DNA from: an uncultured Nitrososphaerota archaeon
Lineage (GTDB): Archaea > Thermoproteota > Nitrososphaeria > Nitrososphaerales > Gagatemarchaeaceae
NCBI GenBank assembly: GCA_963703285.1
Contig: OY969807.1
Span: forward strand, 32,001-96,000
DNA: 64,000 nucleotides
Direction: 5' to 3'
Shown here: positions 17,173 through 61,895 of the stretch, one piece after another
Layout of the letters: each line of letters begins with the position of its first letter
Numbering within the stretch: the stretch's first letter is position 1
The notes under the pieces: model-generated
Seen by the model: only the letters and a program-made list of their open reading frames with translations
What the model was told of the DNA's origin: nothing
The model's database searches: none
Program-made: the position numbers and the translations under genes

Positions 17173-17241
17173 ATGTCTGAGGAAGAGTTTCTCAGAGACA
17201 AGTGGGCTACTTCTGCCGCGCTCCTAGTACCCGCTCGATAA
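17173..17241 (+). pseudogene. orphan N-terminal stub of rps11 (MSEEEFLRDKWA plus 10 read-through residues)
   Basis: ATG 6 nt after the rps4 stop; 8 of 11 residues identical to the N-terminus of rps11 at 18121-18153. Confidence 0.85.
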
Positions 17242-17926
17242 CTAATCTGCCGTAGCCGAAATCTATTGCTAGTTTGACTATCGGTACCCGGTCGGTGTTG
17301 TAACGGTAGCGAATCATTGATTGCTCTTCTTCGGTCACGCAAATCCTTGTCGCGGCGTGAGCTTTTTCGAGATTTAGGGCAACCTTCAGTCTCAGCCCCT
17401 CAGACCGTGTGTATGGAATCTTCGCTGTCTTTAGTATCCCCACCTTATTTCCAATTTCTACTTCGTGGTTCACACAGCGTACTAGTTCATCCCCCGTAGT
17501 TCTGTCTTCTAGATAATCAACTATGGCTTGCAGTTCCGCTCTTTTCTTATACACGTACGGCAGCATTTCTTTCGATGCGAGGAGTACTCCGTCGAGGTTG
17601 GGAATTCTAATCTGCCATGCCGATAACCGATGTTCGAATTTCTTTTTCGTGAGACCACCTGCCCGAATGCCCTTCAGACTTAGAAAATTTCCCACTGCGA
17701 TTAGCTGCCTGTCCCAATTGTCAGTGAATCCGATCTTGACATTGATTGTGAATTGGCCAAGTTTCTCTTCCACATTTCCGTCCCCATCGAAAAAACCGGC
17801 TACGACGGGCCAGCCTTTGTATCCATCATCCAATATCCCACAGGTTCTTGAATAAAGGTCCGGCGGTATCGGAAAATTCATTGGCGCGTTTTTCCGCGGC
17901 CTCCCAGGCCTCGGTTTGCTCTCCAT
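17207..17926 (-). CDS. single-motif LAGLIDADG homing endonuclease with N-terminal AT-hook-like and C-terminal HTH-like segments
   Basis: VVAGFFDGDG motif; PRPGRPRK at the N-terminus; PIVKLAIDFGYGRLVIERVL at the C-terminus; atypical codon usage. Confidence 0.85.
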   Translation of the reverse strand: MESKPRPGRPRKNAPMNFPIPPDLYSRTCGILDDGYKGWPVVAGFFDGDGNVEEKLGQFTINVKIGFTDNWDRQLIAVGNFLSLKGIRAGGLTKKKFEHRLSAWQIRIPNLDGVLLASKEMLPYVYKKRAELQAIVDYLEDRTTGDELVRCVNHEVEIGNKVGILKTAKIPYTRSEGLRLKVALNLEKAHAATRICVTEEEQSMIRYRYNTDRVPIVKLAIDFGYGRLVIERVLGARQK

Positions 17927-18153
17927 GATTGTGTAGGATGACCTTACTTATCATCACCACCCTCAGGAGTATCTCACACGACTAGGGAAAGCGATAACCA
18001 GGCAGTCTTCGGTCGCCGAAGCGGTCTTGAGTGTAGGTCATAGGCAGTTCGAGTATCGGGTGACTTGGGGAAGTTTCTTAAGGAGGTGGTAGACGGGCTC
18101 AACGATTCAAAGACTTGAGTTCTGACGAGGAGCTGTTGCGGGATCGTTGGGCT
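17209..18153. mobile_element. free-standing homing endonuclease cassette inserted in the rps11 5' end, carrying a new promoter and replacement rps11 N-terminus
   Basis: AT-richer segment bounded by TGGGCT at 17203-17208 and 18148-18153; removing it reconstitutes an in-operon rps11. Confidence 0.8.
18070..18083 (+). promoter_or_regulatory. putative BRE/TATA for the rebuilt rps11
   Basis: GAAG-TTTCTTAAG about 33-45 nt upstream of the TTG at 18115. Confidence 0.5.
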
Positions 18154-18522
18154 GTCGTGCACATCTACAGCTCCTACAACAACACCATAGTCCACATCAC
18201 CGACCTGACTGGTGCGGAGACCATCTCCTTCTCCTCGGGCGGGAGGCACGTGAAGGCCGACAGGTTCGAGGCCTCGCCCTACGCGGCGATGCGGTCGGCG
18301 TCCGCGGCGTCCGACGTCGCCAAGGGGAAGGGAATCACCGCCGTCCACATCAAGGTGAGAGCGGTTGGTGGCACGGGTCCGAGGACACCAGGTCCCGGCG
18401 CTCAGGCGGCGATCAGGGCCATCGCCCGCTCTGGCTTCAGGATAGGACGAATAGAGGACGCCACCCCCATACCTCACGACACGACCAGGAAGAAGGGTGG
18501 GCGCAGAGGAAGAAGGGCGTAA
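18115..18522 (+). CDS. rps11: 30S ribosomal protein S11 (uS11)
   Basis: [44 protein letters not shown] and GGRRGRR motifs. Confidence 0.97.
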
Positions 18523-18651
18523 GAAGACCTCACGACTTTACTGCGGCTAGTCTCCCGCCCAACTAGGCCTGAGAACCTGATGGCGTGTGAATGCTTTTAA
18601 ACCCCACACCCGCCCGCGTTAAAACTTAGCCCGCCGGAGTGATTGTTGGGA

Positions 18652-19296
18652 ATGGTTATCGCCAAGGTCAAAGTGCTCGAGGAGAGCGACGAGAAGGTCT
18701 CGTTACAGCTAGAGGGCGTAGACCGGTCCTACGCCAACGCCATCCGGCGCTTCTGCATCTCCGAGGTCCCCGCCATGGCCATCGACGACATCGTGATCCT
18801 CGAGAACTCCTCGGTGCTCTACGACGAGATCCTCGCCCACAGGCTTGGGATGATCCCCCTCCGCACCGACCTTGAGCGCTACGTCCTCCCCGAGAAGTGC
18901 GACTGCGGCAACCCGCTCGGGTGCCAGAAGTGCAGGGTGCTCATCGTCCTCGACGCCGTCGCGACCGACAAGCCGCGCACCGTCCTCTCCGGAGACCTGG
19001 TCTCCGAGGACAGGGAGATACGGCCCGTAAGCCCGAACATACCGATAGTCAAGCTGGCCGCTGGCCAGTCCGTGAAGCTCGAGGCGTACGCCAGGCTCGG
19101 GAGGGCCAAGGAGCACGCCAAGTGGCAGCCCTCGACCACGTCGGTGTTACTGGAGGGCAAGCCGGAGGGCTCGTTCATACTGAAGGTGGAGAGCTCGGGC
19201 TCGATGCCAGCCAAGGAGATTGTGACACGGGCTATCCAGAAGCTGGAGGAGAAGCTGCAGGACCTGCACACCGAAGTGAGTAGTAAGACAGAATGA
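18652..19296 (+). CDS. rpoD: DNA-directed RNA polymerase subunit D (Rpo3)
   Basis: ANAIRR, ENSSVLYDEILAHRLGMIPL, a Cys cluster and KEHAKWQP. Confidence 0.96.
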   Translation: MVIAKVKVLEESDEKVSLQLEGVDRSYANAIRRFCISEVPAMAIDDIVILENSSVLYDEILAHRLGMIPLRTDLERYVLPEKCDCGNPLGCQKCRVLIVLDAVATDKPRTVLSGDLVSEDREIRPVSPNIPIVKLAAGQSVKLEAYARLGRAKEHAKWQPSTTSVLLEGKPEGSFILKVESSGSMPAKEIVTRAIQKLEEKLQDLHTEVSSKTE

Positions 19297-20076: not shown

Positions 20077-20077
20077 G

Positions 20078-20500
20078 ATGGTATCCCAATCCAAGCAGAA
20101 GACGAAGCCCAAGCTCTATCCCGGCTCGAGGAAGACGTCCAGGGCGACGGCGGCGATACACGCAGGGCAGGGGCGGATACGCGTCAACGGGGTGCCGCTC
20201 GAACTCTGCGAGCCGGAGGTGGCCAGGCTGCACATGCTCTCCCCCGTCGCGGTCGTCGGGGACCTGAGGGAGAAGTACGACATCGACGTAAACGTCTCCG
20301 GCGGCGGATTCATGAGCCAGGCCGACGCGGTCGCCATGTCCCTTGCGAGGGCCTACGTCGACCAGGTGAAGGGGGCCGAGCTCCGGGAGAGGATGAACGC
20401 CTTCAGCAAGTACCTCCTGTCGGGCGACCCCAGGCAGACGGAGCCCAAGAAGTTCGGCGGCCCCGGGGCCAGGCGCAAGAGGCAGAAATCATACCGGTGA
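20078..20500 (+). CDS. rps9: 30S ribosomal protein S9 (uS9)
   Basis: [16 protein letters not shown] and [19 protein letters not shown] motifs. Confidence 0.97.
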
Positions 20501-29286: not shown

Positions 29287-29667
29287 ATGACCCCGAAAGC
29301 CTATTTCGTAAAGTTCGAGACACCCAAGGAGGTATCGGAGGCTGCGTACGAGGTCCTGAGGCAGGCTTCCCGCTCCGGGAAGGTCCGGAAGGGGACCAAC
29401 GAGACGACCAAGGCGATAGAGCGCGGCCTGGCCAAGCTCGTCGTCATAGCCGAGGACACCGAGCCCCCCGAGGTCGTCGCGCACCTTCCTCTGCTATGCG
29501 ATGAGAGGAAGATCCCCTACGTCTTCGTCCCCTCCAAGGACCAGATCGGGCCGGCGATCGGCATAGACGTCCCGACGGCGGCCGCGGCCGTCATCGAAGC
29601 CGGTGAGGGGCAGCAGATCCTCGACCAGGTCACGCAGGAGCTGACCCGGGTGAGGTCCAAGCAATGA
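29287..29667 (+). CDS. rpl7ae: 50S ribosomal protein L7Ae
   Basis: [13 protein letters not shown] and [13 protein letters not shown] motifs. Confidence 0.97.
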
Positions 29668-29879
29668 GCAAGCAGGCCGCCGAGGACGTCACCCCCGCCG
29701 AGGTCGTCCAGATAGTCGGGCGGACCGGGGTCGCCGGGGAGATAACTCAGGTCAGGGTCAAGATCCTCGAGGGCAAGGAGAAGGGCAGGATCCTCACCAG
29801 GAACGTCAAGGGGCCCATAAGGCTGGCAGATGTGCTATTATTGCGAGATACGGAGCGCGAAGCTCGCAAGATAAAATAG
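29664..29879 (+). CDS. rps28e: 30S ribosomal protein S28e
   Basis: [23 protein letters not shown] and EREAR motifs; last ~17 codons are AT-rich. Confidence 0.96.
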
Positions 29880-29908: not shown

Positions 29909-31186
29909 CTAAGACTTTCGTGTTGCCGCTTTTTTTCTGGATATACTCTCGCTTGGCATTGTCACCTTTCTGCTCCATCTTTGGACAGCCTCGAAGGAAA
30001 TGAGCAGGCCCATTGTTTCCGCAACTTCCTCGACAATGGCAGGAACGGATAGTCCTCGCCTCGTCAACTCGGCGATTCGATCTCGAATGTTCGCGGGCAG
30101 ACGTTCTTCCCGTCTGAGACGTCTGGTCGTGGCTAGAAGCTTCAGCTTCTGATAGCGGACCGTGTTCAGATGTGGCGCTAGAATTGGCGTCTGGAACGAC
30201 TTTACAGCTTGACTCTTTACGAGGTCGATTGCTTCTCTGCAGCGAAACGCCTTGAGACCGAAAGTCGCCAGGAAGCGAATCATAAGTTCCCAGTTTGGCC
30301 CAAGCCAGAGCTCCATCGATTGGGAGGCAACGTTGGGAGACCCATCTGACTCCGCAAGCCCCTGGAGAAGTCCAACTCTGAAGTCCTCAGGCGCAGACAG
30401 AATCCATTCCGATTTGATCGGGTGGTAAGTCGTGACTTCGCCGTCGCGCAATCCTAGCCCGACGCCGTAGAGCCAATCGATTAGCGGCGAGGATTGCGAA
30501 ATCCATTCGAAGAAGCCATTCGGTTTGCTCTCGGGCTTTGACAGGTCTGCCGCCCTATGCATTCGTAACCCCACACTCCACGCACAGACGCAAGTGAAAT
30601 CCCCGAGGGCGAGGTTTGTATCGTACTTCATGCTGAGCACCAGCCCAATATGTCTGTGGCCTGACTTCTGTTTGGATTTTGAACCATCGCCAATAATCAT
30701 TCCGTACAGAAAGCCGAGTAGGTATCTCCGGCTAAACGTCCTGTAATCAAGGGCCAAGGGCCTGAGTTGAAAGAGCACTTCCTCGACGTCGCTCCATGTC
30801 CTAACTTGGAGAGGAACTTGTACAAACTGACCGATGGGGATGGCGTACCCATGCGAACACTCAGTGTTAAGCCAGACTAGTCCCTGTCTCGCCATCCCCA
30901 ATTCAATGAATGCCTTAAGGTAATGCCCCAGCTTCGGCATTGTCTCGAGTAAGGACCATGAACGCACGGTTGTGTTGGAGGCCTTCAGACCCCAGCCGAT
31001 TGAGAATGGATTCTCGCCCCGGCATTTCGCCTGCATCACCCTCGCGAATTGGTGGTAACCAGTTACGTCTCTTTCTAGGGGTTCGCACCCTTTCCAGAAG
31101 CATTTCGTGAAATCTAGGCTGTCGCCATGCTCTGAGATATACGACCGGAGCGCATCCTTCCAGGGTTCCTCAGGCTGTCCTTCCAC
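29909..31186 (-). CDS. double-motif LAGLIDADG homing endonuclease with C-terminal HTH-like segment
   Basis: FLYGMIIGDGS and LLQGLAESDGS motifs; atypical codon usage; convergent with rps28e. Confidence 0.85.
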   Translation of the reverse strand: MEGQPEEPWKDALRSYISEHGDSLDFTKCFWKGCEPLERDVTGYHQFARVMQAKCRGENPFSIGWGLKASNTTVRSWSLLETMPKLGHYLKAFIELGMARQGLVWLNTECSHGYAIPIGQFVQVPLQVRTWSDVEEVLFQLRPLALDYRTFSRRYLLGFLYGMIIGDGSKSKQKSGHRHIGLVLSMKYDTNLALGDFTCVCAWSVGLRMHRAADLSKPESKPNGFFEWISQSSPLIDWLYGVGLGLRDGEVTTYHPIKSEWILSAPEDFRVGLLQGLAESDGSPNVASQSMELWLGPNWELMIRFLATFGLKAFRCREAIDLVKSQAVKSFQTPILAPHLNTVRYQKLKLLATTRRLRREERLPANIRDRIAELTRRGLSVPAIVEEVAETMGLLISFEAVQRWSRKVTMPSESISRKKAATRKS

Positions 31187-31270
31187 GCAATCCTATTCCA
31201 CGGTGCATTTAAGCGGCGAGGATCCAATTCGAACTAACTGTAATCGAACTGCGTCCTTCTCGAAAATGCA

Positions 31271-32701
31271 CTACCTCCGGCCCGGTGGTCTTCCCTTGAC
31301 GGTGTAACCTGCCGTCAGTCCTATGATTAGCAGCACCGCCATCGCCGCGTATGCCCACGATGGTGTCGCCGAAGCTGCGGGGGTCGCCGTTGAGGTTATC
31401 GTCTGTGTAGTCACGGTCGTCGGTTGCACGCTCGACGTGGATGCGGGTAGTGTCACAGTTACGGTCGGACCCGTAACCGTTATCGTGGGCCCGGTCGCGA
31501 TCTGAGTAATTGTCGCTGTCATGGATTCGGAAACCGTGGCCGTCACGGTCTGGGTAACAGTCACGAGGTTGGTAGTAGTCGTGGTCGTAGTGACCGTGGA
31601 CGCCGAGGGCTGCTGGCTAGAAGACGCCGTCTGCGTGGGCGACTGGGTCGCGCTCGACGAGGACGTGACGGCTGAGGACGAGGTGAAGGTGGACGACTGG
31701 CTGGGGTTGGACGCGGTCACCGACGGGTTGAGGGCGTCGAGAAGGTTGTAGGCGCTGCAGTCGTCGTGCATGCACGGCAAGCCGAATATCGACTCGATAA
31801 CCGTCGGGATTGAGTAGTGGCTCGCCAGATTGTGGTCGATTATCCCATTGGGCCCGTAGGGGGCGAGCATGATCATCGGGACCCGGTACCCGAACTGGCC
31901 CGGCGGCGTAACGTGGTCGTACCAACCGCCGGAGTCGTCCCAGGTGAGAAGCACCACCGTCGATTTCAGGTAGCCTGAGGAGTTGAGGTCGTCGATGACC
32001 CCGTGTATCCACGCCTGGCCTAGGGTCAGGTTAGCCGGCGGCTCGTCGCTCACCTCGTCGCTGTCTGGCATCACAAAAGACACGTCGGGTAGGGTGTGCG
32101 TCTTGATATCGGAGATGAGTGTCGTCGTGTCTTGCTCGTTGTTAAGCCAGCTGGGAGATTGCGTGAAGAACGACAGGGGGCACTCGTTGTAGTTGCAGTT
32201 GAAGTAGTCCCAGGACACGCCCGCCGCTGTCATCTCGTCGAGTATCGTCGTGTTGGAGCGCCAGGGGAAGGCTTGCCCGGAGGTGTTCCAGTCGGTCACG
32301 AAGCCGAGGGTCGAGCCCGCTATCATCGCCATGCGGTTGGGCAGGCTGGCCAGCGGCGAGACCGTGAAGTAGTTGTCGAAGAGGATGCTCTCGTTCGCTA
32401 GGGCGCAGTAGTACGGGATGTCGCTGCAGGTGAAGTAGCCGTAGTTCTCGGGATGACCCACGAACCCCCCGAGGCTCTGATTCTCGTAGACCTCATCGGT
32501 CGTATCGTGGAAGATGGGCGCTGTCGAACCCTGCAGCCCGTTGGCGCCGGGGTAGAAGCCGAAGAAGTTGTCGAAGGTATGGTTCTCCTGGACGAAGATT
32601 ACCACGTGCTGGATCGCGGGTGCAGGCTGGGCCGTCGGGAGCTCCGGGATGGCGAACAGGAGCAGGAACGCCACGGCGGCAGCGAGGATGAGGTTCCTCA
32701 T
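31271..32701 (-). CDS. secreted phosphoesterase (phospholipase C / acid phosphatase family) with Ser/Thr-rich stalk and C-terminal membrane anchor
   Basis: Signal peptide, IQHVVIFVQENHTFDNFFG, PNR, TWDDSGGWYDHVTPP and GYRVP motifs; C-terminal TM helix. Confidence 0.9.
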   Translation of the reverse strand: MRNLILAAAVAFLLLFAIPELPTAQPAPAIQHVVIFVQENHTFDNFFGFYPGANGLQGSTAPIFHDTTDEVYENQSLGGFVGHPENYGYFTCSDIPYYCALANESILFDNYFTVSPLASLPNRMAMIAGSTLGFVTDWNTSGQAFPWRSNTTILDEMTAAGVSWDYFNCNYNECPLSFFTQSPSWLNNEQDTTTLISDIKTHTLPDVSFVMPDSDEVSDEPPANLTLGQAWIHGVIDDLNSSGYLKSTVVLLTWDDSGGWYDHVTPPGQFGYRVPMIMLAPYGPNGIIDHNLASHYSIPTVIESIFGLPCMHDDCSAYNLLDALNPSVTASNPSQSSTFTSSSAVTSSSSATQSPTQTASSSQQPSASTVTTTTTTTNLVTVTQTVTATVSESMTATITQIATGPTITVTGPTVTVTLPASTSSVQPTTVTTQTITSTATPAASATPSWAYAAMAVLLIIGLTAGYTVKGRPPGRR

Positions 32702-33177
32702 CAATGTCCCGCCACCCAAAGACAGTCGCGTCCGGGGAGCGTCTGCTCGGTCGTCATATTCGTGCAGCCCGGTGGTCCTACTTGGCACGATTGCGTGCAA
32801 GGTACGGGCCGATTACCTTCAGGGGCCAATATCGAAGCGATGAAACTTCGTCTCCAGGGGGGCCTACCGCGGTCACAGCATTCCATCGCTACCCACCAAG
32901 TGCGGACGACCTTGGTCGAGTATATAATGCCGGCCTGCCATTCTCATCTTTGAGACGCACTTCTATCAGGTTTATTCTAACGGCGTTAATTTTCTCTCCA
33001 ACGGTGTTGACCCCAGGCTCACGTCAAGCCGGGCGGATGTCGTGGCCTTGGCCGGCGGCCCATCACTGGTTGGAATGGATTGCCGTCGCGAACTTCACTC
33101 CGGCTCGTTCTTTCACATCGTTTGCTTTATATGCAGATGCTGCGGGCCTCCGCCGAATTACTCGTCAGGCGATTGTC

Positions 33178-33354
33178 TTGTACACACCCAAGAAATGCTT
33201 CTTCTGCGGCAAGGACGTCCACCTCGGCGAGGGGATAATGCTCGTCTTGAACGACGGGTCGACCAAGAGCTACTGCTCCTCCAAGTGCAAGGTGAACGAC
33301 CGCAAGCTGAAGCGGGACCCACGCAAGTTCAAGTGGGCGAGGGAAAACAGGTAA
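33178..33354 (+). CDS. rpl24e: 50S ribosomal protein L24e
   Basis: CFFCG...G.GIM.V.NDG...YCSSKC...KRDPRKFKWA; TTG start at 33178. Confidence 0.95.
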   Translation: MYTPKKCFFCGKDVHLGEGIMLVLNDGSTKSYCSSKCKVNDRKLKRDPRKFKWARENR

Positions 33355-36767: not shown

Positions 36768-39700
36768 ATGGCCCAGACGATGTCCACGGTCCCGACGATG
36801 CGCATCCCCAAGCAGCCGGAGTGCAACATAGGCAGCGCAGGCCACGTGGACTCCGGGAAGTGTCAAAGAATCGACCAGTATGTCCTGCTCGAAGGCGTTC
36901 CTGTCACGGGGTCTCAGATTCTCCAGAAAGCGAAGTCGAGGGGTGTCTTGCTCGGGCGGATTGATGGTGGAGAGGTCTACGAGTTCGATGGAAGCAACGT
37001 AGTCTGCGTGGACGACAGATTCGAACCTGTGACCGCTGGCTCGAAGCTCTTCGTACAAGACTACAGCGGTCCCATGTATACCGTCATAGGTAAAAGTGGA
37101 AGATCAATCTGCATAACGCCAGAACACCCACTGCTCGTCAACAGAATGGGAAATCTCCAATGGATGAAAGCCAAGGATATACGCGAAGGCGATTACGCCG
37201 CGTTCCTTAGCCGCGTTCCCTTGGGGGAATCCATAACTCTTCCCGATGCCTTACCATCACTGAGAGAACGCTACGACGTGCTGACCTGGGAAGACTATAG
37301 TGAGTTGAGGTCAGCGACTTCGGACTTCACAGAGTTCGCGACCCTGCCCCAGAACAAGTTCGAAAAGATGAGGCTGCTGACCGGTCTCTCGGCATCTGGT
37401 CTCTCCAGGAAAGCAGGCATAAGTCGGGAAGCCTACTATAGAGTTCGTAGAGGAAAGACCATGCGCGCCCTCATAGGCGAGAAGGTGCGGCGGGCGTTTG
37501 CGAATTCAACTCTCGTTCCACTCTCTCCGCAGGAATTCCTCGTCGAGAGAAGCAGAGGGCACGGGAGGAGTGTGTCGAGGCTCGTGGATGTGGGGCAAGT
37601 CGATGGCGACATCGTAAAGTGGTTTGCGTTCGTCTGGGCCGAAGGTACGAGTCGGTCGTCCTTTGTTGGGGTCACGCAGACAGTTCAACGCAGGATGCTA
37701 GAGGAGTTCCTCAGGGTTACGAAGGAAAAGATGGGTCAGGAGATCGCGGGCTACGAAGACGGGAACTTCAGAATCCACAGCACAGCCTTCGTCGATTACC
37801 TTCGCGCCAGATTCGACTACGCTCCCGGCAACGAGTCCGTGTGTGGGATAGCCGATTGGGTCTGCAAGCTTCCTAGGAGTCTCAAGGCGACATTCCTCAG
37901 GTGGTTCCTCACCCTCGATGGCGAATTCGATGACAAAGGCGTCATATCCGTCACGCAGCTGAACGACAGAAATGTCGTCATAATCTCCTACCTCCTTCAC
38001 TCGTTTGGCATAGTCCCGCGCTTCTCCATCAAGAGAAGCCCGACCAAAGGCGGCATGAAGCTGTACCCGAGGCTGTCCGTTTCCGGTCGAGAGAACCTCA
38101 GGCTCTTCGCGGAGCTCATCGGGTTTGAGGATTCTCGCATACAGGGAAGATTGCTTGGGTACCTCTCCAAAATCAAGAAAGAAAGCAAAGAGACGGATCT
38201 TAGCATCCCCATCAACATCGAGTCTATTCGTCTGCTATTCAGGAGTTGCGGGATCCAGCGAGAGGCATTCGACCGAAACTCGACTATACCACAAATGAAG
38301 GGGTCTGCTTGGTACAAGGCCTACGAAGGCGCCGTAAGATCAGGCAGGATTTCAAGGAGAAAGCTCTCCCTCGTGGTGGCAGCCATAGATGAGCACCTGA
38401 AGTCGACCGAGAGGTCCTTGTCTGTGCTCAGGGCAGAAGGAAACTCTGCGCGGTATCACATGGCGCTCATGGGTGCCTCGATTGAATCTGTCGCGAGCGA
38501 ACTCGGAACTACACAAAAGGTGCTGAGACGCATTCTGCGGAGGGGGTCCGAGAGCGAGCTGGCACCCATCGTCAAGTATCTCAGGGCGGAGACGCGGGGG
38601 ATTCTTCATTACGCCGCTGGCTCCCTAGAGCAATTGCGTCTGCTTGCTTCTTCGCCTCTGGAATTCGACAGAATCGTCTCCGTGCAGACCGAGGAGTACA
38701 GCGGTCTAGTCTACGACCTCAGCGTTCCCGAGTACGCTAACTTCGTTGCTGGCAAGGGAGCGACGGTCTGCCACAACACATCAATTGTAGCGAGCATAAC
38801 CGGCGTGTGGGCGAGTGCTCACAGCGAGGAGCTGAAGAGGGGCATCACCATTAAGGTGGGGTACGCGGACGCGGCATTCTACAAATGCGCGCACACGCCC
38901 CCTCCAGAGGCGTTCTCGACCTCCCCTGTCTGTCCGGTATGCGGCCAGGAGACACAGCTGCTCAGGGCCGTCAGCTTTGTCGACGCGCCGGGCCACGAGA
39001 GCCTGATGACGAACATGCTAGCGGGGGCCGCGCTCATGGACGGCGCCTTCCTCGTGATAGCGGCGAACGAGCCCGTCCCGATGCCCCAGACAAGGGAGCA
39101 TATGCTCGCCCTCCAGATGCTCGGAATGAAGAAGATGGTTGTGGTACAGAACAAGATTGACAGGGTAGACGCCGAGGGGGCAAGGAAGAACTACGAGGCG
39201 ATCAAGAGTTTTCTCGCCAACACCATCGCGGCCGATGCCCCTGTGATCCCCGTCTCGGCTCAGCACGGCATCAACATCGACGCCCTGATACAGGCGTTCG
39301 AGGAGAACATCCCCACACCGGCAAGGGATCCGTCGGCGGTGTCGCAGATGTACGTGCTGAGGTCGTTCGACGTAAACAAGCCGGGATCGGAGATTCGCTC
39401 GCTCGTGGGCGGGGTGCTGGGCGGAAGTCTAGTCAGGGGAGAGCTGAAGGTGGGCGAGGAGATCGAGATATCTCCGGGGCTTCCGGACGAGAGGGGGAAG
39501 TACGCCCCCATCCTCACGAAGATAGCGAGCCTCGGGACCGGCGCTGGGATGGCCGATAAGGTCGGCCCCGGCGGTCTGATATCCCTCGGAACATATCTCG
39601 ACCCCGCGCTTACCAAGGGTGACCTGATGGTCGGGTCGCTCGTCGGCAGACCCGGGACGCTCCCTGCTCCCAAGACCCACTTCACGGTCGAGCTCCAGCT

Positions 39701-45337: not shown

Positions 45338-45808
45338 TCAGGTTGGGGGCTCGTTGGCAATCCTGAACTTCACGACGGGCCTGATCTTCTCCACCTGTAT
45401 GAAGGTCTCAGCCTGATTAACGCCGGGGACCTTGCCGAGGCTTTCGGCCACGATCTTGTAGATGTCCTCTATGGTCTTCGCTCTCAGCGTTATGAACGCG
45501 TCGAACCTGCCGGTCACCTCCTGTATCGTCCTCACCTCGTCGAGCTTCGCTATCTCGCTGAGCGCCTGGTCGCGCTGCTTCGGGTCGAGGTTCAGACCCA
45601 CCATCGCCGAAGCGGGGAGGCCGAGTTTGTCCTCGTCTACGATTATCGTGAACTGCTTGATTATCTGGCGCTTCGAGAGCCGCTTTATTCTGCTGTACGT
45701 CACGGAGAGATTCAGCCCGAGGTCCTTGCTGAGCGAGGGTATCGAGACCGACGCGTCCTGGTAAAGAGAGCCCAGTATTTTCATGTCCACTTCGTCAAGT
45801 TTTCCCAT
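45338..45808 (-). CDS. Lrp/AsnC family transcriptional regulator
   Basis: LDEVDMKIL..L..DA, RIKRL and VTGRFD motifs. Confidence 0.93.
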   Translation of the reverse strand: MGKLDEVDMKILGSLYQDASVSIPSLSKDLGLNLSVTYSRIKRLSKRQIIKQFTIIVDEDKLGLPASAMVGLNLDPKQRDQALSEIAKLDEVRTIQEVTGRFDAFITLRAKTIEDIYKIVAESLGKVPGVNQAETFIQVEKIRPVVKFRIANEPPT

Positions 45809-45979
45809 TTGGAGCCACTTTAGTTGCAATTAATTCATGTCATGTATATACGTCTTTTGCTATTGCACGAGAATGTTAGTCATTTTCCGAACTTATTTCC
45901 AAGTGCGCGCTAAAATGCCCAGTTGCGCCGACCTTCGTGGGCAAGAAAACTAATCAATCTCGAATTCGAGGCGCGTCAC

Positions 45980-46552
45980 GTGCAGCGCAAGAGCAGATAC
46001 AATTCCAAAATTGGCAAGCTTGTCTTCTTCGCTCCCGCTGCCATAATCATAATACTCGTTGTCTATGCTTTCGTCCAGCTGAATTCACCGGGCACGTTGG
46101 TCGTGCGGGCTGAAGACCAGAATTTCAAACTGCTCAACGTCCCCTTCACAATCAACGGGAACTCCTACACCACGCCGAAGAACGTGTCGTTGTCGCAGGG
46201 GTCCTACGTTGTGGACTTTGGCGTCATAACTTGGTACTACGCGCCGGCTTCAAGGGACGTAACGGTCACACCCGGCCACACCGTGTATGCCGTCGGATCC
46301 TACACGCCGGCCACGAAGTTCGTACAGGTCACCGGCAGTGGGTTCAACGTCACTTCGGTCTCCGCGCTCCACGGTGTCACACCCGTCGAGTGGATCAACC
46401 CTTCCGACTCTGTGGTGACGTTCAGCGGAGGCCCGTTCCAGCAGGTCAGGTTAGAGCCCGACCAGTCCTACACCTATACGTTCCCTACGGCGGGGACCTT
46501 CATCGTCAATGTCGGAACCACCAACGAGACCCTTACGATCAACGTCCAGTAA
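45980..46552 (+). CDS. membrane-anchored protein with cupredoxin-like C-terminal strands
   Basis: N-terminal TM; V.W.N and L.PDQSYTYTF..AGTF pattern, without obvious Cys/His/Met copper ligands. Confidence 0.65.
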   Translation: MQRKSRYNSKIGKLVFFAPAAIIIILVVYAFVQLNSPGTLVVRAEDQNFKLLNVPFTINGNSYTTPKNVSLSQGSYVVDFGVITWYYAPASRDVTVTPGHTVYAVGSYTPATKFVQVTGSGFNVTSVSALHGVTPVEWINPSDSVVTFSGGPFQQVRLEPDQSYTYTFPTAGTFIVNVGTTNETLTINVQ

Positions 46553-46743
46553 CCGCACGTCCTATCCCATGGCCATGCATTCTGGAATCGTCTGGACTGG
46601 ATTCGGCCCGCGGGTGTGCGTCGATTCAAAGCTCGGCTTGGCGCCCTCTCGACCCTTCGAGGCGAGGAATGGAATATTAGTGAGATTTGTGCCACGATTA
46701 TTTTTTAGAGCCCTAAAACGGTTCTCTTGCCCCTAGAATCGCC

Positions 46744-46780
46744 CGAATTGTAGACAATTCGTCCACTCTCCTTATATACT
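46744..46780 (+). promoter_or_regulatory. palindromic site plus TATA box upstream of the putative S-layer operon
   Basis: CGAATTGT-AG-ACAATTCG (46744-46761), then CTTATATA (46772-46779). Confidence 0.65.
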
Positions 46781-46798
46781 GATTTCAAGCGACCTGCC

Positions 46799-49700
46799 AT
46801 GAAAATAATGAATACATCTTCGATGTATTTCAACAAATTCAGTTCGGGAACTATACTAGCATTGCTAGCACTGTCAGGAATGCTGTTGCTGGTACCAGCA
46901 GTGGTACCGGCACATGCAGCAGGAAACGCAAGTCTTCCATCCCTCACCGCTGCGCCAAACACATTGCTTAGCGCGAACACCCCAGTCACCTTCACAACGA
47001 CTAACCCCTCGTCAAACGCATACGCACTAACCAGCATGACGATCATCGCACCAAGCGGTTGGTCGTTTGTCCTTGCCACCTTCTCTTGTCCAACAGGACT
47101 AACGTTACTCGGGGCCTCGTCGACCTCAGCGTTCCAATGCACGGGAACTCTGCCTCCTGGCTTCAGTGCCACCGCAACAGGCACAGTAACGCCAGTCACC
47201 GCAAACACAGGTCCGGCAGCCACGGGCACATTCTCGTCTGCCGTTGTTGACGCGTCTTCAAGCGCATCGTACAACGGTCCGACGGTCGTCTTGTACTCGA
47301 TAGCAGCTGGAACCACCGTCTCTTGTGTAACCCCAATCGGCGCAGGCACCTGTGCAGCCCCAGGAGGAACGAACTTCATCGCAGGTAGCGCTCCGATAAC
47401 CGTTACGGCGACCCTGAGCACCAACCAGGCAGGCGTGCCCATCGTCTTCTCCGTGACGACGGCTCCATCGGCAGGCTTCACCGCGACTGTCTCACCGACA
47501 TCTTCAACGACAACAGCTGGTGCAACACAAAGCAGCGCAACGACATCCTTCACTCCAAGCAACCACTTCCCTGACACGACGACCATAACCGCAACCATCG
47601 GCACCTCAGGCACACACGGCGCATCTGGTGTCATCTCGACCGTTGCCGGAAGTCCGTCAACTGTCGGATGGACCTACGCAGGCCCCACATCGTTCAACGC
47701 TGGAAAGACATTCTACCTCAGCACCGGATACTTCGGCCTTCCCACATACGCAGGAGCCACGAGGATGGCTGAATTCCCATTCGGAGCGCTAAGTGGCCCG
47801 TTCACGGTCTCGGTGTCTGATTCCTTTGGCAACGCCATCGCCTACAACAACGCCAATCTCGCCGGCGTGGCCATCACCGTCGCCGCTTCTGGCGGCTCAG
47901 GCTTCGATAACGGTGGAACCGCGCTGCTCAGCACGATATCTTGTGCAACAGTCGGCATCAACAACTGCAACGCAGCCGGCGGCGGACAGATCGACCTCAA
48001 CTACTTCCAGGGCTATACCTATGGATTCGTTGGGGCCCTGAGCGCGCTGATAACCGGCACCTACTTCGGTACCGCGTTCTCAGTTAGCTCGACCAGCGGG
48101 AACATCATCACCGGAACCGACACGACATACACGATAGCGGCAGCCTCTCTCGCCCCAGGTGCAGGAACTACCGACAAGATCACCGTCACACCAGTAGGTG
48201 GCCTTACTCAGCCGGGAGTCCCAGTGACCTTCAACCTCTGCGGATTCCAGGTAGGAGCCACCGTATGTCCGGGCGTAACGACCGGATACACGGGAAGCTT
48301 CGTCGGTGGAGGCCAGACCGGCTTCGGAGCGACGACAGGCGGCGCAACCGGAACAGCGACGGCGACCTACACAGTCGATACGGCGCTGAACAGCAAGGGT
48401 GAATGGAACGCAACATACGCAGCACCAACTACAGCAGCTCCAAAGACGGTCGCTAGCGCGGGCCTAACCGGCGTCGCGATTACAGGACCGGGCGCGGCAG
48501 CCTCCTTCACGTCTCTAGTCTACTTCGACCAAGGAGTCACGGCGCTCAGTAGCACGCCCTCCATCGTTCCAGGCGGAATCATGTACGTCAACGTGCAACT
48601 CGTGGACGAATTCGGCAACCCCACGACGAACACGGGCGTAACCCAGATTCAGGTCCAGCTGTCCGTAACCGCACCCTCGACGATCGCGGTCCAGTCGGCC
48701 TACATCCCATTCGGCGGCTCCAACACGGTCGCAACCTTCGGGTACATCCAATGGACGGTTCCATCCACGGTCGCAGTCGGCTCGGTGCTGACCCTGACCA
48801 TGAACGGAGTAGTCAATGGGATCCAACTCTCACCAGCTCCATCGTACACAGTGAAGGTCGTCTCACCACTACCGACCCTGAACGTCCTGGCACCGACTCC
48901 ATCCTCGAGCGGATACATCTACTCATCCACGACAGGGGTAACCTTCAAGGGATGGGCTAACGTCTCCGCAGGTTACTCCCCGCTGACGACACACATAGCA
49001 ACCGTAGGCTACAAGGTCGGCACGACACCGTGGGTACAGACGGCAGGCTCGGGTACCGCGACTGACAACTACATCCTCTCCCTCTTCATGCCAGTCGGCC
49101 TGAGCACCCTCCAGATCAACGCAACAGACAACACACACGCAAAGAACACGGCTGTAAGCCAAGTCTACAACGTACTTGTGGACACGCAGCCCCCGACGTT
49201 CACCTTCAGCACAGCTTCTTCCAACAACGGATGCGTCACTGTGACAGCGGCGACCGCTGAGGGCGACTTCAACGAAGCCCTTACCGGCACAGGTGCATTC
49301 AGCGCCTCGTTCGGCGGAGTAGCAGTCTCAAGCGGAGCCATAACATGGGCCGGAACGCAGACGCCCGGAACAGCCGGGAGCGTCGCCGCGACCATCTGTG
49401 GCCTCGTCTCTCAGACGGCAACATTCTCCGTGACGGGCAGCACCCTGGCTGGATTGAGCTCGACAAACAGTGAGTCACTCACAGTCACTGTTCCGTTCGC
49501 AGACTCGGTCACCTTCAACACAGCGACAGCAACCTACGGAACTGTTGGCGCCTACTCGGGTGTCACAGTCACCGTGACCAACGGTTGGAACACAGCTCAG
49601 ACCCTAGTCATCTACGCGACCTTCAAGTCCGGAACCAGCATCTACGTGGCAGACGGTACGGTAACCCTCGCCGCCGGTGCATCCGCGCCAGTGTTCTGCA

Positions 49701-58912: not shown

Positions 58913-59323
58913 GTGTTCGTAAGAGCCAAGAGGGTCGGGCGGAGGCGATACCTCTACCTGGTCGAAGGGAGAAGGGACAACGGAAAGGTCAGGCAGGTCA
59001 CGCTCTGCTACCTCGGCCCCCTGTCGGAATTGGCCTCTGGCGTGCCAGAGGCCCTCAGGAGAGGGATTGACGTCCGTCTCCGCGTCGACTGGCAGAGGGT
59101 GAACGACGAGATTGGTCAGATCCCTCTGACGTTCGAGGAACTCTCAGAGGCGAGGAGGGCACAGTTCGCCCTTTCCGCCAGGGCGAGGACCCAGCGAGGG
59201 CGTCCCACCCAGGGCGACTTGCCGAGAAAGGAGGGGGAACTCTCCGCGCTTTCGAAGCTGGCAGCATTGAGATTCGAAGAGCTCTTCGAGGAAACCGGAG
59301 CGCTCACCTTTCGGATGAGGTGA
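58913..59323 (+). CDS. hypothetical DNA-binding protein with IS1634-N-terminus-like beta domain (putative antitoxin)
   Basis: MFVRAKRVGRRRYLYLVEGRRDNGKVRQVTLCYLG; GTGA overlap with the next gene. Confidence 0.6.
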   Translation: MFVRAKRVGRRRYLYLVEGRRDNGKVRQVTLCYLGPLSELASGVPEALRRGIDVRLRVDWQRVNDEIGQIPLTFEELSEARRAQFALSARARTQRGRPTQGDLPRKEGELSALSKLAALRFEELFEETGALTFRMR

Positions 59324-59928
59324 GGAAGATGATTCCGAGCAGAAGAACCCCAGCCGGGCCACGCAAGGGGCCCCGGCGCACACCACCGCGAATCATCCTA
59401 GCGCAGCTCAGGAAGGAGCCGAACGAGCTGAAGAAAAAGATGCTCCTCCTCGGATTCATCTCTGATGAACTATCGAGAAAGGATGGTTTCCTCTTCCTCG
59501 TCGGGGGGCAGGCGGTCGAGACCTACACCGCCGGTCAGTTCACGACCGGAGATGTCGACATCACCACCACTGACCAGGAGGCGACGGAGAACTTGCTGAG
59601 CCGATTGGCCTTCAAGAGAGAGGGGATGGTCTGGCTGAACGAGAAACTGGCCATCGCAATCCACATCGTCGGCTCTTATCCAACGAGGACTGAGAAGGTT
59701 CGCACCCTGGAGGTCGGAGGGTACTTGGTCAGGATAGTTGGGATTGAGGAGTTGATAATAGACAGGCTGAAAGCAGCGAAGTTCTGGAAGAGCAGACGAG
59801 ACTCCGAGCAGGCCGTTGTCCTCTTCGACGGTTTCAGGGAGCGCATTGACCGTGAATATCTCAGGAAGAGAGCCAGAGAGGAGAAGGTCGATGACATCCT
59901 TCCCGAAGTTGGGCGGATGAACGGTTAG
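59320..59928 (+). CDS. AbiEii/DUF6036-like nucleotidyltransferase
   Basis: LVGGQAVETYT...TGDVDI motif and EELIIDRL. Confidence 0.75.
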   Translation: MRKMIPSRRTPAGPRKGPRRTPPRIILAQLRKEPNELKKKMLLLGFISDELSRKDGFLFLVGGQAVETYTAGQFTTGDVDITTTDQEATENLLSRLAFKREGMVWLNEKLAIAIHIVGSYPTRTEKVRTLEVGGYLVRIVGIEELIIDRLKAAKFWKSRRDSEQAVVLFDGFRERIDREYLRKRAREEKVDDILPEVGRMNG

Positions 59929-60071
59929 CAGGTAACTCGGGACAGAGCCTCGATGCGGTTATCTCGAGCACGATGTTTGGCCAGAAGTAGAGCAAGAGAC
60001 CTCAAAATCAATAAAGACTCTCACTGGGAGAAGCCGGAGTCGACGGCGATGCTTTGACCGGGCCCAAAGGG

Positions 60072-60152
60072 ATGAAGATTTTGTCGATCCTGTGGGCCCC
60101 ATTCGGGTTTCGCGTGTTGCTTAAATCTTCGTTCCACCTGTCAAACAGTTGA
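60072..60152 (+). pseudogene. orphan N-terminal stub of the downstream glycosyltransferase (MKILSILWAPFGFR plus read-through)
   Basis: Aligns ungapped with MKTIVLVWGPFGFR at 60887; its TGA overlaps the TTG start of the nuclease gene. Confidence 0.8.
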
Positions 60153-60929
60153 GAAGAGGATCGCACCATTCCGTCGAGGCCAAGCGGAAGGTGTCGGAGG
60201 CTAGAAGAGGAAATCATCCAAAGACAGAGTTCAAGAAGGGTAACACCCTGTGGGTAGGAAGGCATCACTCTGAGGAGTCGAGACAGAGGATTTCTCGGGC
60301 GCTCATCGGTAGGACAGAGTCCGTTGAAACTCGAGCCCGAAAATCTAGGGCACACATGGGAAAGATCCCTTGGAACAAGGGTCTGACAAAAGAGACGACG
60401 CCAAGCTTGGCAAGGATCGGGGAGAAGAAAAGATCGTGGTGGACCGATGATAGGAAGAAACAACTAGCTGAGCGTAACCACTGGTTCTTCAGAGAATGGT
60501 GGAGAAAACATCCCGAACACGCGGAAACAATGGCGAGGGTCGCCAGGCCAACAACAATCGAGATGCTCGCGAGAGAGTCTCTGACGAAGAGAGGGGTGAA
60601 GTTCTCAGTCTGCAAGAGGGTCGAAGAGATTTGTTTTCCCGATCTCTTCCTTCCTGATGAAAAAATCGCGATATTCTGCAACGGTTGTTACTGGCACGCT
60701 TGTCCGAAGCACTGTCCAAGCGTGCCAGACTGGCTTCGAAAGAAGATTAAGGACCGACAAATCTATGAAGAGCTCGGAAGACGTGGTTGGAAGGTGCTAG
60801 CCATCTGGGAACATGAGTTCAAGCTTAATCACGATGTAGCTGGAGAGAGACTTGAACAGATGCTCCATGACGCGAGAGGTGAGTGAATGAAAACCATAGT
60901 CTTGGTTTGGGGTCCCTTTCGGCTTTCGT
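60114..60929. mobile_element. free-standing nuclease cassette inserted in the glycosyltransferase 5' end, with replacement N-terminus
   Basis: AT-richer block between two copies of the W-x-P-F-G-F-R coding segment. Confidence 0.75.
60149..60886 (+). CDS. NUMOD3-repeat DNA-binding region fused to a Vsr/DUF559-like endonuclease
   Basis: HSVEAKRKVS, HHSEESRQRIS, ESVETRARKS, PWNKG; then PTTIE, FPD, FCNGCYWH and GWKVLAIWE. Confidence 0.85.
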   Translation: MRRGSHHSVEAKRKVSEARRGNHPKTEFKKGNTLWVGRHHSEESRQRISRALIGRTESVETRARKSRAHMGKIPWNKGLTKETTPSLARIGEKKRSWWTDDRKKQLAERNHWFFREWWRKHPEHAETMARVARPTTIEMLARESLTKRGVKFSVCKRVEEICFPDLFLPDEKIAIFCNGCYWHACPKHCPSVPDWLRKKIKDRQIYEELGRRGWKVLAIWEHEFKLNHDVAGERLEQMLHDARGE

Positions 60930-61895
60930 GCTGATGAACTCGCGGAATCCGTGGGTGCCGAGAGGGTCAGCATCACCGTCCTCTACGGCCCGCGATACTT
61001 CGCACCCATCCGCTACGTGGCGCTCTTCTTCAAGACCCTTCTGATACTCTCCCAGCGGAAGCCGGATGTCGTCTACGCCCAGAACCCTCCGGTGTTCTGC
61101 CCCCTCACCTGCATGCTCTACTGCCGTGCCACCGGCAAGAAGCTGGTCATAGACCACCACTCGGTTTGGAAGGTCAAGACCCTCGGCCGGGGGCCACTAT
61201 CCAGAATCATAGGGGTCCTTGAGGGGGTCGTCTCCCGCTCGGCCGCTGGGAACACCGCTCCCCACGTCTTCTGGGCCGAGATGCTCAGGTCGATGGGCGC
61301 TAGGAACGTTCTGGTGGTGCACGACTATGTCGAGAGGAACACCAACGCGCGCGACGAAAAGCTGCGGCTCTCCTTCACGGACAGGCCCTTGGTGGCGGTC
61401 TGCTCCCACGGCGGGCATCCCCTCGAGCGTATCGAGGCCGAGGCGTCCGGCGTCGGTCAGGTCGGCTCCGTCGAGCTGCTGATCACCGGCCCGAAAGAGA
61501 AGCTCGAGCGCAGGCTCTCAGCGGTCGCGCTCCCGGAGAACGTCCGGTACCTGGGCTTCCTCCCGAGGCAGACCTACGAGTCGCTCAAGGCCTCCGCCGA
61601 CATGGCGATCAACGTGACCGACGAGCCCTTCACCCTCTCTCACGTGCTCCTGGAGTATGCGGCCAGCTCCCTCCCGGTGATATCCTCCAGGGAGGAAGTG
61701 GTGCGGGGGTTCTTCGGGGACGCCCTGCTGTACACCGACACCACGGACTCCGCCGAGGTCGCGGAGAAGGTGAGGATGATGCTCGACCCGGCCGTCCGTG
61801 ACGAGTACAGGGAGAGGGTGACGAGGTGGTACGGCGAGCTCTCCCTCTCGCACCAGGCCGAGGTGCGGTCGCTCAGGTCGCTGCTGGGCCGATAA
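60887..61895 (+). CDS. glycosyltransferase (GT-B, family 4-like); +1 frameshift near 60917
   Basis: KPDVVYAQNPP, IDHH, YLGFLP and EYAASSLPVISS motifs; ATG 60887 joins the 60951 ORF after skipping one base. Confidence 0.85.

Follow-up and report, generated by a model that had tools for sequence, protein, structure and literature searches.

Probable homing-endonuclease cassettes with replacement gene starts in an archaeal chromosome, one of them with a candidate +1 frameshift

How can a free-standing homing-endonuclease gene reside at the start of a gene with neither an intron nor an intein to remove it from the product? The question is raised by a 64,000-nucleotide stretch of the genome of an uncultured Nitrososphaerota archaeon (contig OY969807.1 of assembly GCA_963703285.1, positions 32,001 to 96,000; hereafter the window), where three nuclease genes lie at gene ends: LAG1 at rps11 (locus 1), LAG2 between rps28e and rpl24e (locus 2) and a gene for a NUMOD3-Vsr nuclease at a GT4 glycosyltransferase gene (locus 3; Table 1). 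An earlier note, made from the sequence of this DNA, had described these as LAGLIDADG and NUMOD3-Vsr genes and had proposed a splicing-independent strategy in which each element replaces a gene terminus and destroys its own target. The three open reading frames (ORFs) are indeed present where that note had placed them, and their families agree with it: the predicted folds of LAG1 and LAG2 resemble I-CreI and I-DmoI, respectively, and the third protein combines NUMOD3 and Vsr domains. Comparison with relatives suggests an answer that is clearest at rps11 and the glycosyltransferase gene. We consider it likely that these are free-standing homing-endonuclease cassettes inside host 5′ ends, each with its own replacement gene start; they would be able to live there without intron or intein because each carries a replacement copy of the start of the gene.

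Duplicated gene starts at rps11 and the glycosyltransferase gene

In what follows, G000 denotes the genome of the window, G001-G021 and so on are the genomes of its relatives, and L numbers are fetched loci or contigs. The genus set comprises 23 genomes; rps11 loci were drawn from 40 relatives, with a match in 39 of the 41 genomes, G000 included. Around the first two insertions, the gene rows of the window read rps13-rps4-insert-rps11-rpoD-rpl18e-rpl13-rps9 and rpl7ae-rps28e-insert-rpl24e-ndk. At rps11, the rps4 stop (17164-17169) is followed by an ATG at 17173 that opens a stub of 12 codons, MSEEEFLRDKWA. Its frame runs into the 3′ end of the minus-strand LAG1 gene, whose stop codon overlaps the end of the stub. 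In a targeted test against 300 random genome segments, the rps11 N-terminus detects the stub at p~0.007. In G009 and G002, rps11 starts with exactly the stub protein (SEEEFLRDKWA), at the same distance past the rps4 stop, and a TTG followed by a stub-like SEE(E/D)... stands a few bases after that stop in 8 of the 22 loci compared (G009, G010, G002, G005, G014, G001, G003 and G015). Since the starts of these relatives equal or resemble the stub, the latter is the ancestral rps11 start and the eight loci are empty alleles.

The GC content drops to 0.48-0.49 over 17201-18000, as against 0.59-0.67 in the flanking bins, and rps11 restarts at TTG 18115 with N-terminal DNA that diverges both from the stub and from the empty alleles. 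Upstream of this new start, at about 31-33 nt, lies a TTCTTAA motif that is invariant in G000, G012 and G021. The rebuilt gene must work, since rps11 is single-copy, with one match in G000. Among the 29 loci from other genomes, only that of G021 holds a LAG1 homologue, about 55% identical and likewise antisense between rps4 and rps11; a third LAG1-type gene occupies the same site in L105, from a groundwater metagenome-assembled genome (MAG). In G012, the nuclease is absent and about 65 nt of element-type sequence are kept together with the promoter-like block and the recoded rps11 N-terminus, which we read as an allele that has probably lost the nuclease and retained the replacement.

The arrangement recurs at locus 3 with the nuclease gene in the orientation of its host. 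An ATG at 60072 opens MKILSILWAPFGFR, after which unrelated codons lead to a TGA (60150-60152) that overlaps the TTG start of the nuclease at 60149. The glycosyltransferase N-terminus detects this stub at p~0.003, and the stub matches the in-frame N-terminus of 11 alleles of the genus, (M/V/L)K(I/T)L..(V/L)WGPFG(F/Y)RADELA, which have no nuclease within 1.5 kb and are, on sequence grounds, the empty alleles. Stubs in G000, G001, L101 and L104 all end alike at ...PFGFRA. In the metagenome contig L101 (519-700) the downstream ORF is an in-frame continuation of the stub (...PFGFRALKSLGNL...); a nuclease fused to the host N-terminus may be the product there. With 41.1 bits for NUMOD3 (cut-off 20.4) and 34.2 bits for Vsr (cut-off 27), the window protein belongs to both families; it also matches Escherichia coli Vsr (1cw0; E 1.5e-7), with the PD...GC(F/Y)WH block aligned, and the endonuclease phrog_13076 (1.2e-17).

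Comparison of the alleles thus shows an ancestral start codon and first 12-14 codons that persist upstream, as a stub that is dead; a nuclease gene that follows the stub, antisense at rps11 and sense at the glycosyltransferase gene; and a DNA-divergent, element-borne N-terminus that joins an untouched gene body. The earlier note had recognised the duplicated, protein-similar termini of both genes and had proposed that empty alleles be sought in relatives; these exist, as congeners without the nuclease start both genes with the stub sequence, and the replacement termini are shared among occupied and nuclease-lost genomes (G012 for rps11; G003 and G013 for the glycosyltransferase). Within the genus, empty and occupied alleles stand beside alleles that have lost the nuclease and kept the replacement, as would be expected of the invasion, decay and loss cycle of homing-endonuclease genes. 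Other types of mobile element fit less well. No terminal inverted or direct DNA repeats bound the elements of locus 1 or locus 3 (0 families, 0 boundary pairs), in agreement with the note as far as inverted repeats are concerned, and with ends that lack repeats and duplicated termini that are similar as proteins and divergent as DNA they do not resemble transposons or insertion sequences. Nor do the three nucleases match Hint, Intein_splicing or any intein family, introns not having been searched with RNA models; each nuclease is encoded by an ORF of its own, in two cases opposite in strand to the host gene, unlike intein- or intron-borne genes.

Alternatively, the duplication may have originated on the host side, local tandem duplication of gene starts coming first and intergenic nuclease genes landing between the copies later. 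The shortness of the duplicate termini and the lack of boundary repeats would be compatible with such a course, as would the fact that most other free-standing LAGLIDADG genes in G000 are intergenic and without stubs. We nevertheless regard it as very improbable: the stub matches the native start of close relatives, whereas the downstream copy matches occupied or scarred genomes of different backgrounds (G012 and G021; 13 distinct glycosyltransferase sequences), and no relative was found that has both copies and lacks a nuclease or its remnant. Furthermore, a related nuclease is seen in the same layout at a third gene. Of eight LAG1 relatives from other genomes that were compared, that in L105 repeats the rps11 site. 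In L110, a Candidatus Gagatemarchaeum MAG of another genus, a relative of LAG1 occupies, in antisense orientation, the space from the E1-beta stop to the E2 start in a 2-oxoacid dehydrogenase operon. An 8-codon stub, MFQYELKL, precedes the nuclease and matches the uninterrupted E2 start of G000 (MVQHEFKL), and E2 restarts after the nuclease as MEFMLKLPDIGEG. This case is weaker than the other two because the stub is short.

If homing-endonuclease cassettes are the correct explanation, the nuclease would cut the empty allele near the position of the stub end, and repair would then copy the cassette in. The first insertion may have combined one-sided homologous repair with end joining, leaving the recipient N-terminus in place up to the break. 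The cassette would supply a promoter at rps11 and rpl24e, and at the glycosyltransferase gene a ribosome-binding site and a start directly after the nuclease stop.

Several observations weigh against the cassette explanation. The genomes of the genus are kin and not independent samples. No stub is seen in G021, despite the nuclease at its rps11 gene. The earlier note had suggested a genome-wide scan for nuclease genes flanked by duplicated termini; at ten other free-standing nuclease genes of G000, 14 targeted tests of neighbouring termini detected no stub. Finally, the rebuilt rps11 is, across the junction, nearly identical to the natural empty allele of G014, so that the supposed destruction of the target by recoding is not visible at this gene. 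A pseudo-palindromic target at the rps11 junction was rejected, the 6-7 symmetric positions out of 11 being equal to the random median of 6.

The extra base at CCC_TTT_C

What the earlier note missed is that the second glycosyltransferase N-terminus is out of frame with the body of the gene. In G000, G001, G003 and G013 the replacement N-terminus is one base out of register, and ...GFRADELAE and the next 324-326 codons lie in the +1 frame. A pattern search found the site, TGGGGNCCCTTTCGG, in 5 of the 23 genus genomes, namely these four and G021. The Vsr nuclease gene is directly upstream in G000, G001 and G021, although in G021 the protein is only 40% identical, over the C-terminal part; there is none in G003 and G013, and in G013 the region upstream of the glycosyltransferase aligns with that of the empty alleles. 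Nuclease and extra base are thus linked: all three nuclease alleles are frameshifted, the 11 in-frame alleles all lack a nuclease, and two alleles have the extra base without the nuclease. A metagenome search for the site returned 11 contigs with the same layout, three of which duplicate sequences already in hand, giving 13 distinct sequences overall. Ten of the 11 carry a NUMOD3-Vsr gene or remnant upstream, 39-87% identical to the window gene.

Both frames bear the marks of coding sequence. Variation in the N-terminal part is synonymous or conservative in the nuclease frame (five genomes and 11 contigs); in the five genomes, the 11 upstream codons show zero second-position variation, and it is the third positions and the first positions of Leu/Ile/Val codons that vary. 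Past CCC TTT C, it is the +1 frame that the variation follows, and comparison of the five frameshifted genomes gives, for the body of 324-326 codons, a dN/dS of 0.15-0.34 at a dS of 0.9-1.6. Stops lie just before the body in its own frame, which lacks a conserved start; the GTG at 60951 in G000 is GTC or GTA in G001, G003 and G013. At the site, the empty alleles read CCN TTC GGN in frame, and a +1 move after CCC or after TTT would yield ...WGPFGFRADELAE, the sequence of the in-frame alleles. Two coding frames, a conserved slip site and a full-length homologue, the features by which a programmed +1 frameshift is recognised in sequence, are therefore all present.

Our best reading is that this would be a programmed +1 ribosomal frameshift carried by a mobile cassette, an archaeal parallel to mobA/gene 60 of phage T4. 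In its complete form, in which the Vsr-type nuclease, the replacement N-terminus and CCC_UUU_C make up one cassette, the extra base confers self-immunity and the +1 frameshift restores the frame, we put the proposal forward tentatively. Ribosomes would shift at CCC_UUU_C either by peptidyl-tRNA-Phe moving from UUU to UUC or by tRNA-Pro moving from CCC to CCU. In G000, TTT is rare (2.4 per thousand codons, as against 36.4 for TTC), and tRNA-Phe would therefore be expected to re-pair better on UUC; aragorn lists for this genome 16 tRNAs without and 42 with introns, some of them doubtful, and no tRNA-Phe in what is an incomplete inventory. The extra base, for its part, would shield the rebuilt, protein-constrained target from the nuclease of the cassette: it would break that target inside the protein motif WGPFGFR, which cannot be recoded away. 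The apparent conserved, Vsr-linked +1 frameshift is the most interesting part of the present picture, and it is directly testable.

The frameshift may also go undecoded. The occupied alleles would then be null, or would make an N-terminally truncated protein, and be carried by nuclease drive, with conservation reflecting shared ancestry. This would agree with the presence of GTG in the body frame of G000, 10 codons downstream, and with several facts that count against programmed frameshifting. CCC_TTT_C is not avoided elsewhere: it is found in frame 7 times among 351,120 codons, with 20 CCC-TTT pairs where 16.9 are expected. As it is not depleted in frame, the heptamer alone shows no obvious tendency to shift. 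Nor does covariation support a flanking RNA structure that might stimulate a shift (1 of 27 pairs compensatory; covariation term +0.41). One contig, L100, carries a second frameshift within the glycosyltransferase gene, and some alleles may therefore be decaying. Moreover, the 11 metagenome contigs were found through the frameshift site, whose presence in them is thus by construction. A silent extra base is nonetheless unlikely in our view, considering that the body ORF has stayed intact under constraint at near-saturated dS in five genomes, that changes in the upstream codons are, in the frame of these codons, all synonymous or conservative, that the downstream GTG is unconserved, and that the frameshifted start persists in G003 and G013 after loss of the nuclease.

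The assembly deserves the same scrutiny, since the genome apparently derives from a soil metagenome and the junctions could be chimeric, a risk raised in the earlier note, or the extra base a homopolymer error of one nucleotide. The assembly is, however, a single contig of 2.25 Mb. The sequencing runs that contain the locus are soil metagenomes, and run contigs from one soil study span 59900-60247, 60120-60768 and 60863-61013 with no differences or gaps, thus covering the left junction and the frameshift site of locus 3; since the genome may stem from these very samples, the runs lend no independent support. Four other genomes of the genus, as well as metagenome contigs from other records, share both the junctions and the extra base, which makes an artefact next to impossible. 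Frameshifting linked to a mobile cassette remains the reading that we prefer.

The rps28e-rpl24e locus and further nuclease genes

Sequence profiles identified neither LAG1 nor LAG2 (Pfam at E up to 10, PHROGs, and phmmer against PDB), and structure prediction was needed for both. No curated family model covers LAG1: it has no Pfam family even at E up to 10, no PDB sequence match with phmmer and no meaningful PHROG match, and only 14 relatives, none of them annotated, were found among 5.8 billion clusters. The AlphaFold2 (AF2) model computed from the 14 sequences (pLDDT 86) has the elements H39-49, E50-56, E61-69, H72-84, E93-97, E100-108 and H111-121, an alpha-beta-beta-alpha-beta-beta-alpha core, and its top Foldseek matches are I-CreI, I-MsoI and I-CvuI (E 5e-7 to 2e-6, prob 1.0). 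The motif reads GFFDGDG, with G44, D47, G48, D49 and G50 at least 90% conserved in the 14 sequences. According to this model, LAG1 is a LAGLIDADG enzyme of the single-motif type whose C-terminal domain is helical. MAGs that hold close relatives of the window nuclease genes are titled Thaumarchaeota, Nitrososphaerales and Candidatus Gagatemarchaeum. In one Nitrososphaerota MAG (L107, 3180-3260) a LAG1-family gene ends 32 nt before rps6e, whose start seems displaced by a 7-nt tandem repeat, so that the ATG is not in frame with the conserved ...QFKVIISD; the frame may be disturbed here too beside a nuclease gene, or rps6e may use an alternative GTG start. Another MAG (L109, 2438-3697) has a tandem pair of LAG1-family genes immediately 5′ of a GTPase gene, and the first of the pair is internally broken.

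LAG2 reaches only E 0.023 with Pfam LAGLIDADG_3, below the cut-off. Its AF2 model (pLDDT 81.6) places I-DmoI first in Foldseek (E 2.4e-4, TM 0.65 on the target), followed by intein endonuclease domains and WhiA, and the motif aspartates D167 and D281 are invariant in 8 of 8 sequences; the protein thus has a double LAGLIDADG core with its acidic motif residues. A homologue occupies the same place in 9 of the 12 other genus loci (50-62% identity; two are broken), and of the remaining three, two keep an 80-aa remnant and one has none. Broken or reduced copies are those of G002, G009, G013 and G016, and LAG2 is absent from G007. It is also absent from 10 of 10 loci outside the genus; in 7 of these 10, no more than about 17 nt separate the rps28e stop from the start of rpl24e.

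The codon-usage switch that the earlier note had described here is real, but no orphan terminus was found. In rps28e, GC3 is 50/55 in codons 1-55 as against 7/16 in the last 16 (Fisher p=1.8e-4), and a switch at p<0.01 is seen in 8 of 13 genus genomes and in none of 4 outgroups. To be set against terminus replacement at this locus are three genus genomes that have LAG2 or its remnant and no codon switch, and the failure to find, by eye or in the targeted test, any orphan rps28e C-terminus or rpl24e N-terminus, the best candidate having p~0.03 and 4/18 identities. LAG2 might instead be a domesticated, vertically inherited DNA-binding protein similar to WhiA that was fixed between rps28e and rpl24e, the codon switch being a matter of local composition. 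WhiA itself is not known to have the two LAGLIDADG aspartates. Domestication would account for the presence of LAG2 or a remnant in 11 of the 12 other genus loci and its absence outside the genus, for WhiA among the fold matches and for the missing orphan terminus, yet we find it doubtful, in view of the invariance of both aspartates, of the broken, reduced and absent copies, which resemble a decay cycle, and of a synonymous divergence above that of host genes. LAG2 copies have a pS of 0.75-0.89, with pN below pS; for the G000-G001 pair, pS and pN are 0.83 and 0.32, as compared with 0.53 and 0.13 for the glycosyltransferase. Such divergence fits a nuclease that is maintained and exchanges or reinvades, rather than a silent relic or quiet vertical descent. 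The best explanation would be an older, genus-wide resident lying between two genes. Co-transfer of the rps28e 3′ end with the element is likely, if unproven, and a simple insertion between rps28e and rpl24e would explain the case equally well. Taken together, the terminus-replacing architecture of the earlier model is supported at rps11 and the glycosyltransferase gene and plausible at rps28e, where no terminus is duplicated; the mechanism is one that we infer.

Only in G000 does the phosphoesterase insertion separate LAG2 from rpl24e. In L037, L042 and L045, the relatives' loci that reach rpl24e, LAG2 directly adjoins the upstream region of that gene. A 14-nt inverted repeat (93% complementary; 31179-31192 and 32789-32802) brackets the phosphoesterase gene and may mark an inserted or invertible segment, or be due to chance. 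In L036, L042 and L045 (G015, G003 and G011) the rps28e stop is replaced by a sense codon and the ORF extends by about 20-80 codons; the extension beside LAG2 is hydrophobic in G015, where the sequence was viewed.

Elsewhere in G000 there are 16 LAGLIDADG_3 matches, about seven in large ORFs (inteins, including that of aIF2-gamma) and about nine free-standing, besides one LAG1 paralogue and one LAG2-like fragment. One stub candidate near C1:1870170 was dismissed as a tRNA-like sequence, and six-frame alignment of flank against flank was dropped because random pairs scored a median of 51 and a maximum of 84, as compared with 51 and 41 at the true-stub loci. Four paralogous free-standing LAGLIDADG_3 ORFs (C1:220666-221652, 859505-860342, 1311315-1312336 and ~1869220-1870330) lie about 30-110 nt from tRNA genes (tRNA-Cys, tRNA-Gln, tRNA-Ser and a tRNA-like stretch). 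Three of these four tRNAs apparently have introns; the tRNA-Cys prediction has none. Some aragorn predictions have very long introns (~385-3000 nt, for example C1:914325-915358 and 1252895-1255983), which might hold nuclease genes or be false calls. The LAG2-like fragment, a C-terminal one (1137096-1137647), lies in a low-GC island (C1:1134850-1139850; 0.42-0.54) with an HNH-motif ORF and other ORFs without assignment, and the island may be an integrated element. Within the window, the aIF2-gamma gene (36768-39938, plus strand) bears an intein with a LAGLIDADG_3 domain (Intein_splicing 4e-18, LAGLIDADG_3 1.7e-6), at which GC dips between about 36.8 and 38.8 kb; the one window hence has both intein-borne and free-standing nucleases. 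Upstream of the glycosyltransferase stub, between it and nadE, 58913-59928 (plus strand) holds a 136-aa ORF without family and a 202-aa ORF with a weak match to the DUF6036 nucleotidyltransferases (E 0.0077); tblastn found neither in any relative's locus, and nadE and the glycosyltransferase are about 270 nt apart in G014 and G010. The segment represents a further local insertion and possibly encodes a toxin-antitoxin-like pair. Low GC (0.50-0.56) is also seen at 45601-47200, where the ORFs 45923-46552 (plus) and 46705-47634 (minus) have no Pfam match.

Table 1. Positions, in window coordinates, of the features discussed at the three nuclease loci
Feature	Position	Strand	Basis
rps4 (uS4), gene upstream of the first insertion	16603..17166	+	ORF; adjoins rps11 in relatives (tblastn)
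Orphan stub MSEEEFLRDKWA, ancestral first 12 rps11 codons	17173..17208	+	Sequence; relatives' starts; p~0.007
LAG1, free-standing gene for a predicted single-motif LAGLIDADG endonuclease	17207..17926	- (antisense to operon)	Fold, motif, GC 0.48
Promoter-like block TTTCTTAAGG (putative function)	18074..18083	+	Invariant TTCTTAA in element-type alleles
rps11; putative element-borne replacement N-terminus in codons 1-11 (18115-18147)	18115..18522	+	Pfam Ribosomal_S11 2.4e-42
rps28e; last 16 codons (29829-29876) with low GC3	29664..29879	+	GC3 7/16 vs 50/55
LAG2, free-standing gene for a predicted double-motif LAGLIDADG endonuclease between rps28e and rpl24e	29909..31186	-	425 aa; fold, motifs
Secreted phosphoesterase gene, not part of the cassette	31271..32800	-	Pfam Phosphoesterase 4.9e-49
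TATA-like TTTATATG, ~45 nt before the rpl24e start (putative function)	33126..33133	+	Also in L037, L042, L045
rpl24e, split from rps28e by the insertion	33178..33354	+	Pfam Ribosomal_L24e 4.4e-14
Orphan glycosyltransferase N-terminal stub (homologous to codon 14, ...PFGFR)	60072..60152	+	Matches empty alleles; p~0.003
NUMOD3 + Vsr-type endonuclease gene	60149..60886	+ (host-gene strand)	Pfam NUMOD3 1.7e-10, Vsr 2.2e-8
Replacement N-terminus MKTIVLVWGPF, in nuclease frame	60887..60919	+	ATG directly after nuclease TGA
CCC_TTT_C, site of the required +1 frame move	60914..60920	+	Invariant in 13/13 distinct sequences
GT4 glycosyltransferase body in +1 frame	60921..61895	+	Pfam Glyco_trans_1_4, Glycos_transf_1, Glyco_trans_4_4

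Relation to known homing systems and frameshifts

A literature search that reached few subscription journals found no description of terminus-replacing nuclease cassettes in archaeal chromosomes, in keeping with the novelty suspected in the earlier note, nor of a +1 frameshift linked to a nuclease. LAG1 and LAG2 share the fold and the acidic motif of I-CreI and I-MsoI, which are homodimeric, and of the monomeric I-DmoI. Unlike these intron-encoded enzymes, they have no significant Pfam match and carry extra helical domains of DNA-binding appearance. The third nuclease shares a Vsr core and N-terminal NUMOD-type repeats with E. coli Vsr, I-Bth0305I and the nucleases of 'fractured genes' (as described in PMC3239194 and PMC2677866); among solved structures, the sequence search matched Vsr itself and not I-Bth0305I. 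The known Vsr-like homing members sit in introns, in inteins or between split-intein halves, unlike the window gene. Like the free-standing genes of T-even phages and Haloferax, those described here encode stand-alone nucleases and would spread through break repair with co-conversion of flanks. The former are, in the reports concerned, intergenic, unlike the window loci; in the Haloferax glycosylation islands, for example, a LAGLIDADG gene lies beside glycosylation genes, with flanks that are described as having no coding similarity (PMC5867893). According to a 2026 paper, free-standing genes are generally limited to intergenic targets (PMC13619312). The reason usually given for such a limit is that a position inside a gene requires an intron or intein. 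In the archaeal chromosomes considered here, the elements would have a third way out, in that they bring along a spare start of the gene and the signals for its expression. Such an element could sit in single-copy essential genes (rps11 heads rps11-rpoD-rpl18e-rpl13-rps9) and persist there or leave a recoded scar. Annotation wrongly treats genes of this kind as truncated or as pseudogenes, and both LAGLIDADG families are invisible to Pfam.

Closer to the present loci are the alternative or duplicated gene C-termini found beside endonuclease genes in fungal mitochondria (atp6 of Allomyces, rps3 of Ophiostoma, atp6 and cox2 of Phlebia; PMC4019555). As reported there, free-standing endonuclease genes occupy the ends of host genes, where an in-frame terminus of foreign origin takes the place of the native one, and the latter is left as an orphan downstream. 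The fungal cases concern 3′ ends in organelle genomes, whereas here 5′ ends in archaeal chromosomal operons are affected. Because it is the 5′ ends that are replaced, the archaeal elements must supply start signals for transcription and translation.

The prfB +1 frameshift combines a slip in the ribosomal P site with an upstream Shine-Dalgarno (SD) sequence. At locus 3, a P-site tRNA would similarly slip forward onto an overlapping cognate codon, and a G-rich, SD-like TGGGG stands one codon upstream of the shift codon; the SD of the prfB frameshift is described as characteristic (PMC10798248). Unlike in prfB, there is no stop in the A site at locus 3, the next codon is CGG (10.4 per thousand), and the host is an archaeon. 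For Archaea, a 2021 review lists a single demonstrated frameshift, a -1 case, and a +1 event only as a suggestion for a virus (PMC8211752). Since no more than that one has been demonstrated, locus 3 is of value as a compact candidate +1 signal, about 40 nt long, that can be put to the test. If decoded as we propose, it would be the first case in Archaea of a cellular gene that depends on a conserved +1 frameshift.

The closest parallel is mobA/gene 60 of phage T4, in which, according to bioRxiv 10.1101/2022.08.31.505936, the element supplies, along with a nuclease gene, a homologous replacement region whose identity to the parent is 67-81%, and the gene 60 bypass signal blocks self-nicking where polymorphisms alone did not. 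The same account has the bypass signal retained after nuclease loss and a Vsr-family nuclease in place of MobA in some metagenomic clades. Like locus 3, the T4 element is a free-standing nuclease gene inside a coding region with its own homologous replacement of the target-bearing segment, and its recoding signal, a few bases from the nuclease site, blocks self-cleavage, a protective role that the extra base at locus 3 may share. Unlike in T4, the host is an archaeal chromosome, and the gene encodes a glycosyltransferase and is not split into two proteins; instead of the reported 50-nt hop, recoding would consist of a shift by a single base at CCC_UUU_C. Should the proposed cassette and its frameshift be real, locus 3 would be the archaeal chromosomal counterpart of mobA/gene 60 and would add a second case, independent of the first, in which a selfish nuclease has recruited translational recoding. 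It would then provide, beside T4 gene 60, a second natural system in which to ask whether selfish nucleases drive the evolution of translational recoding.

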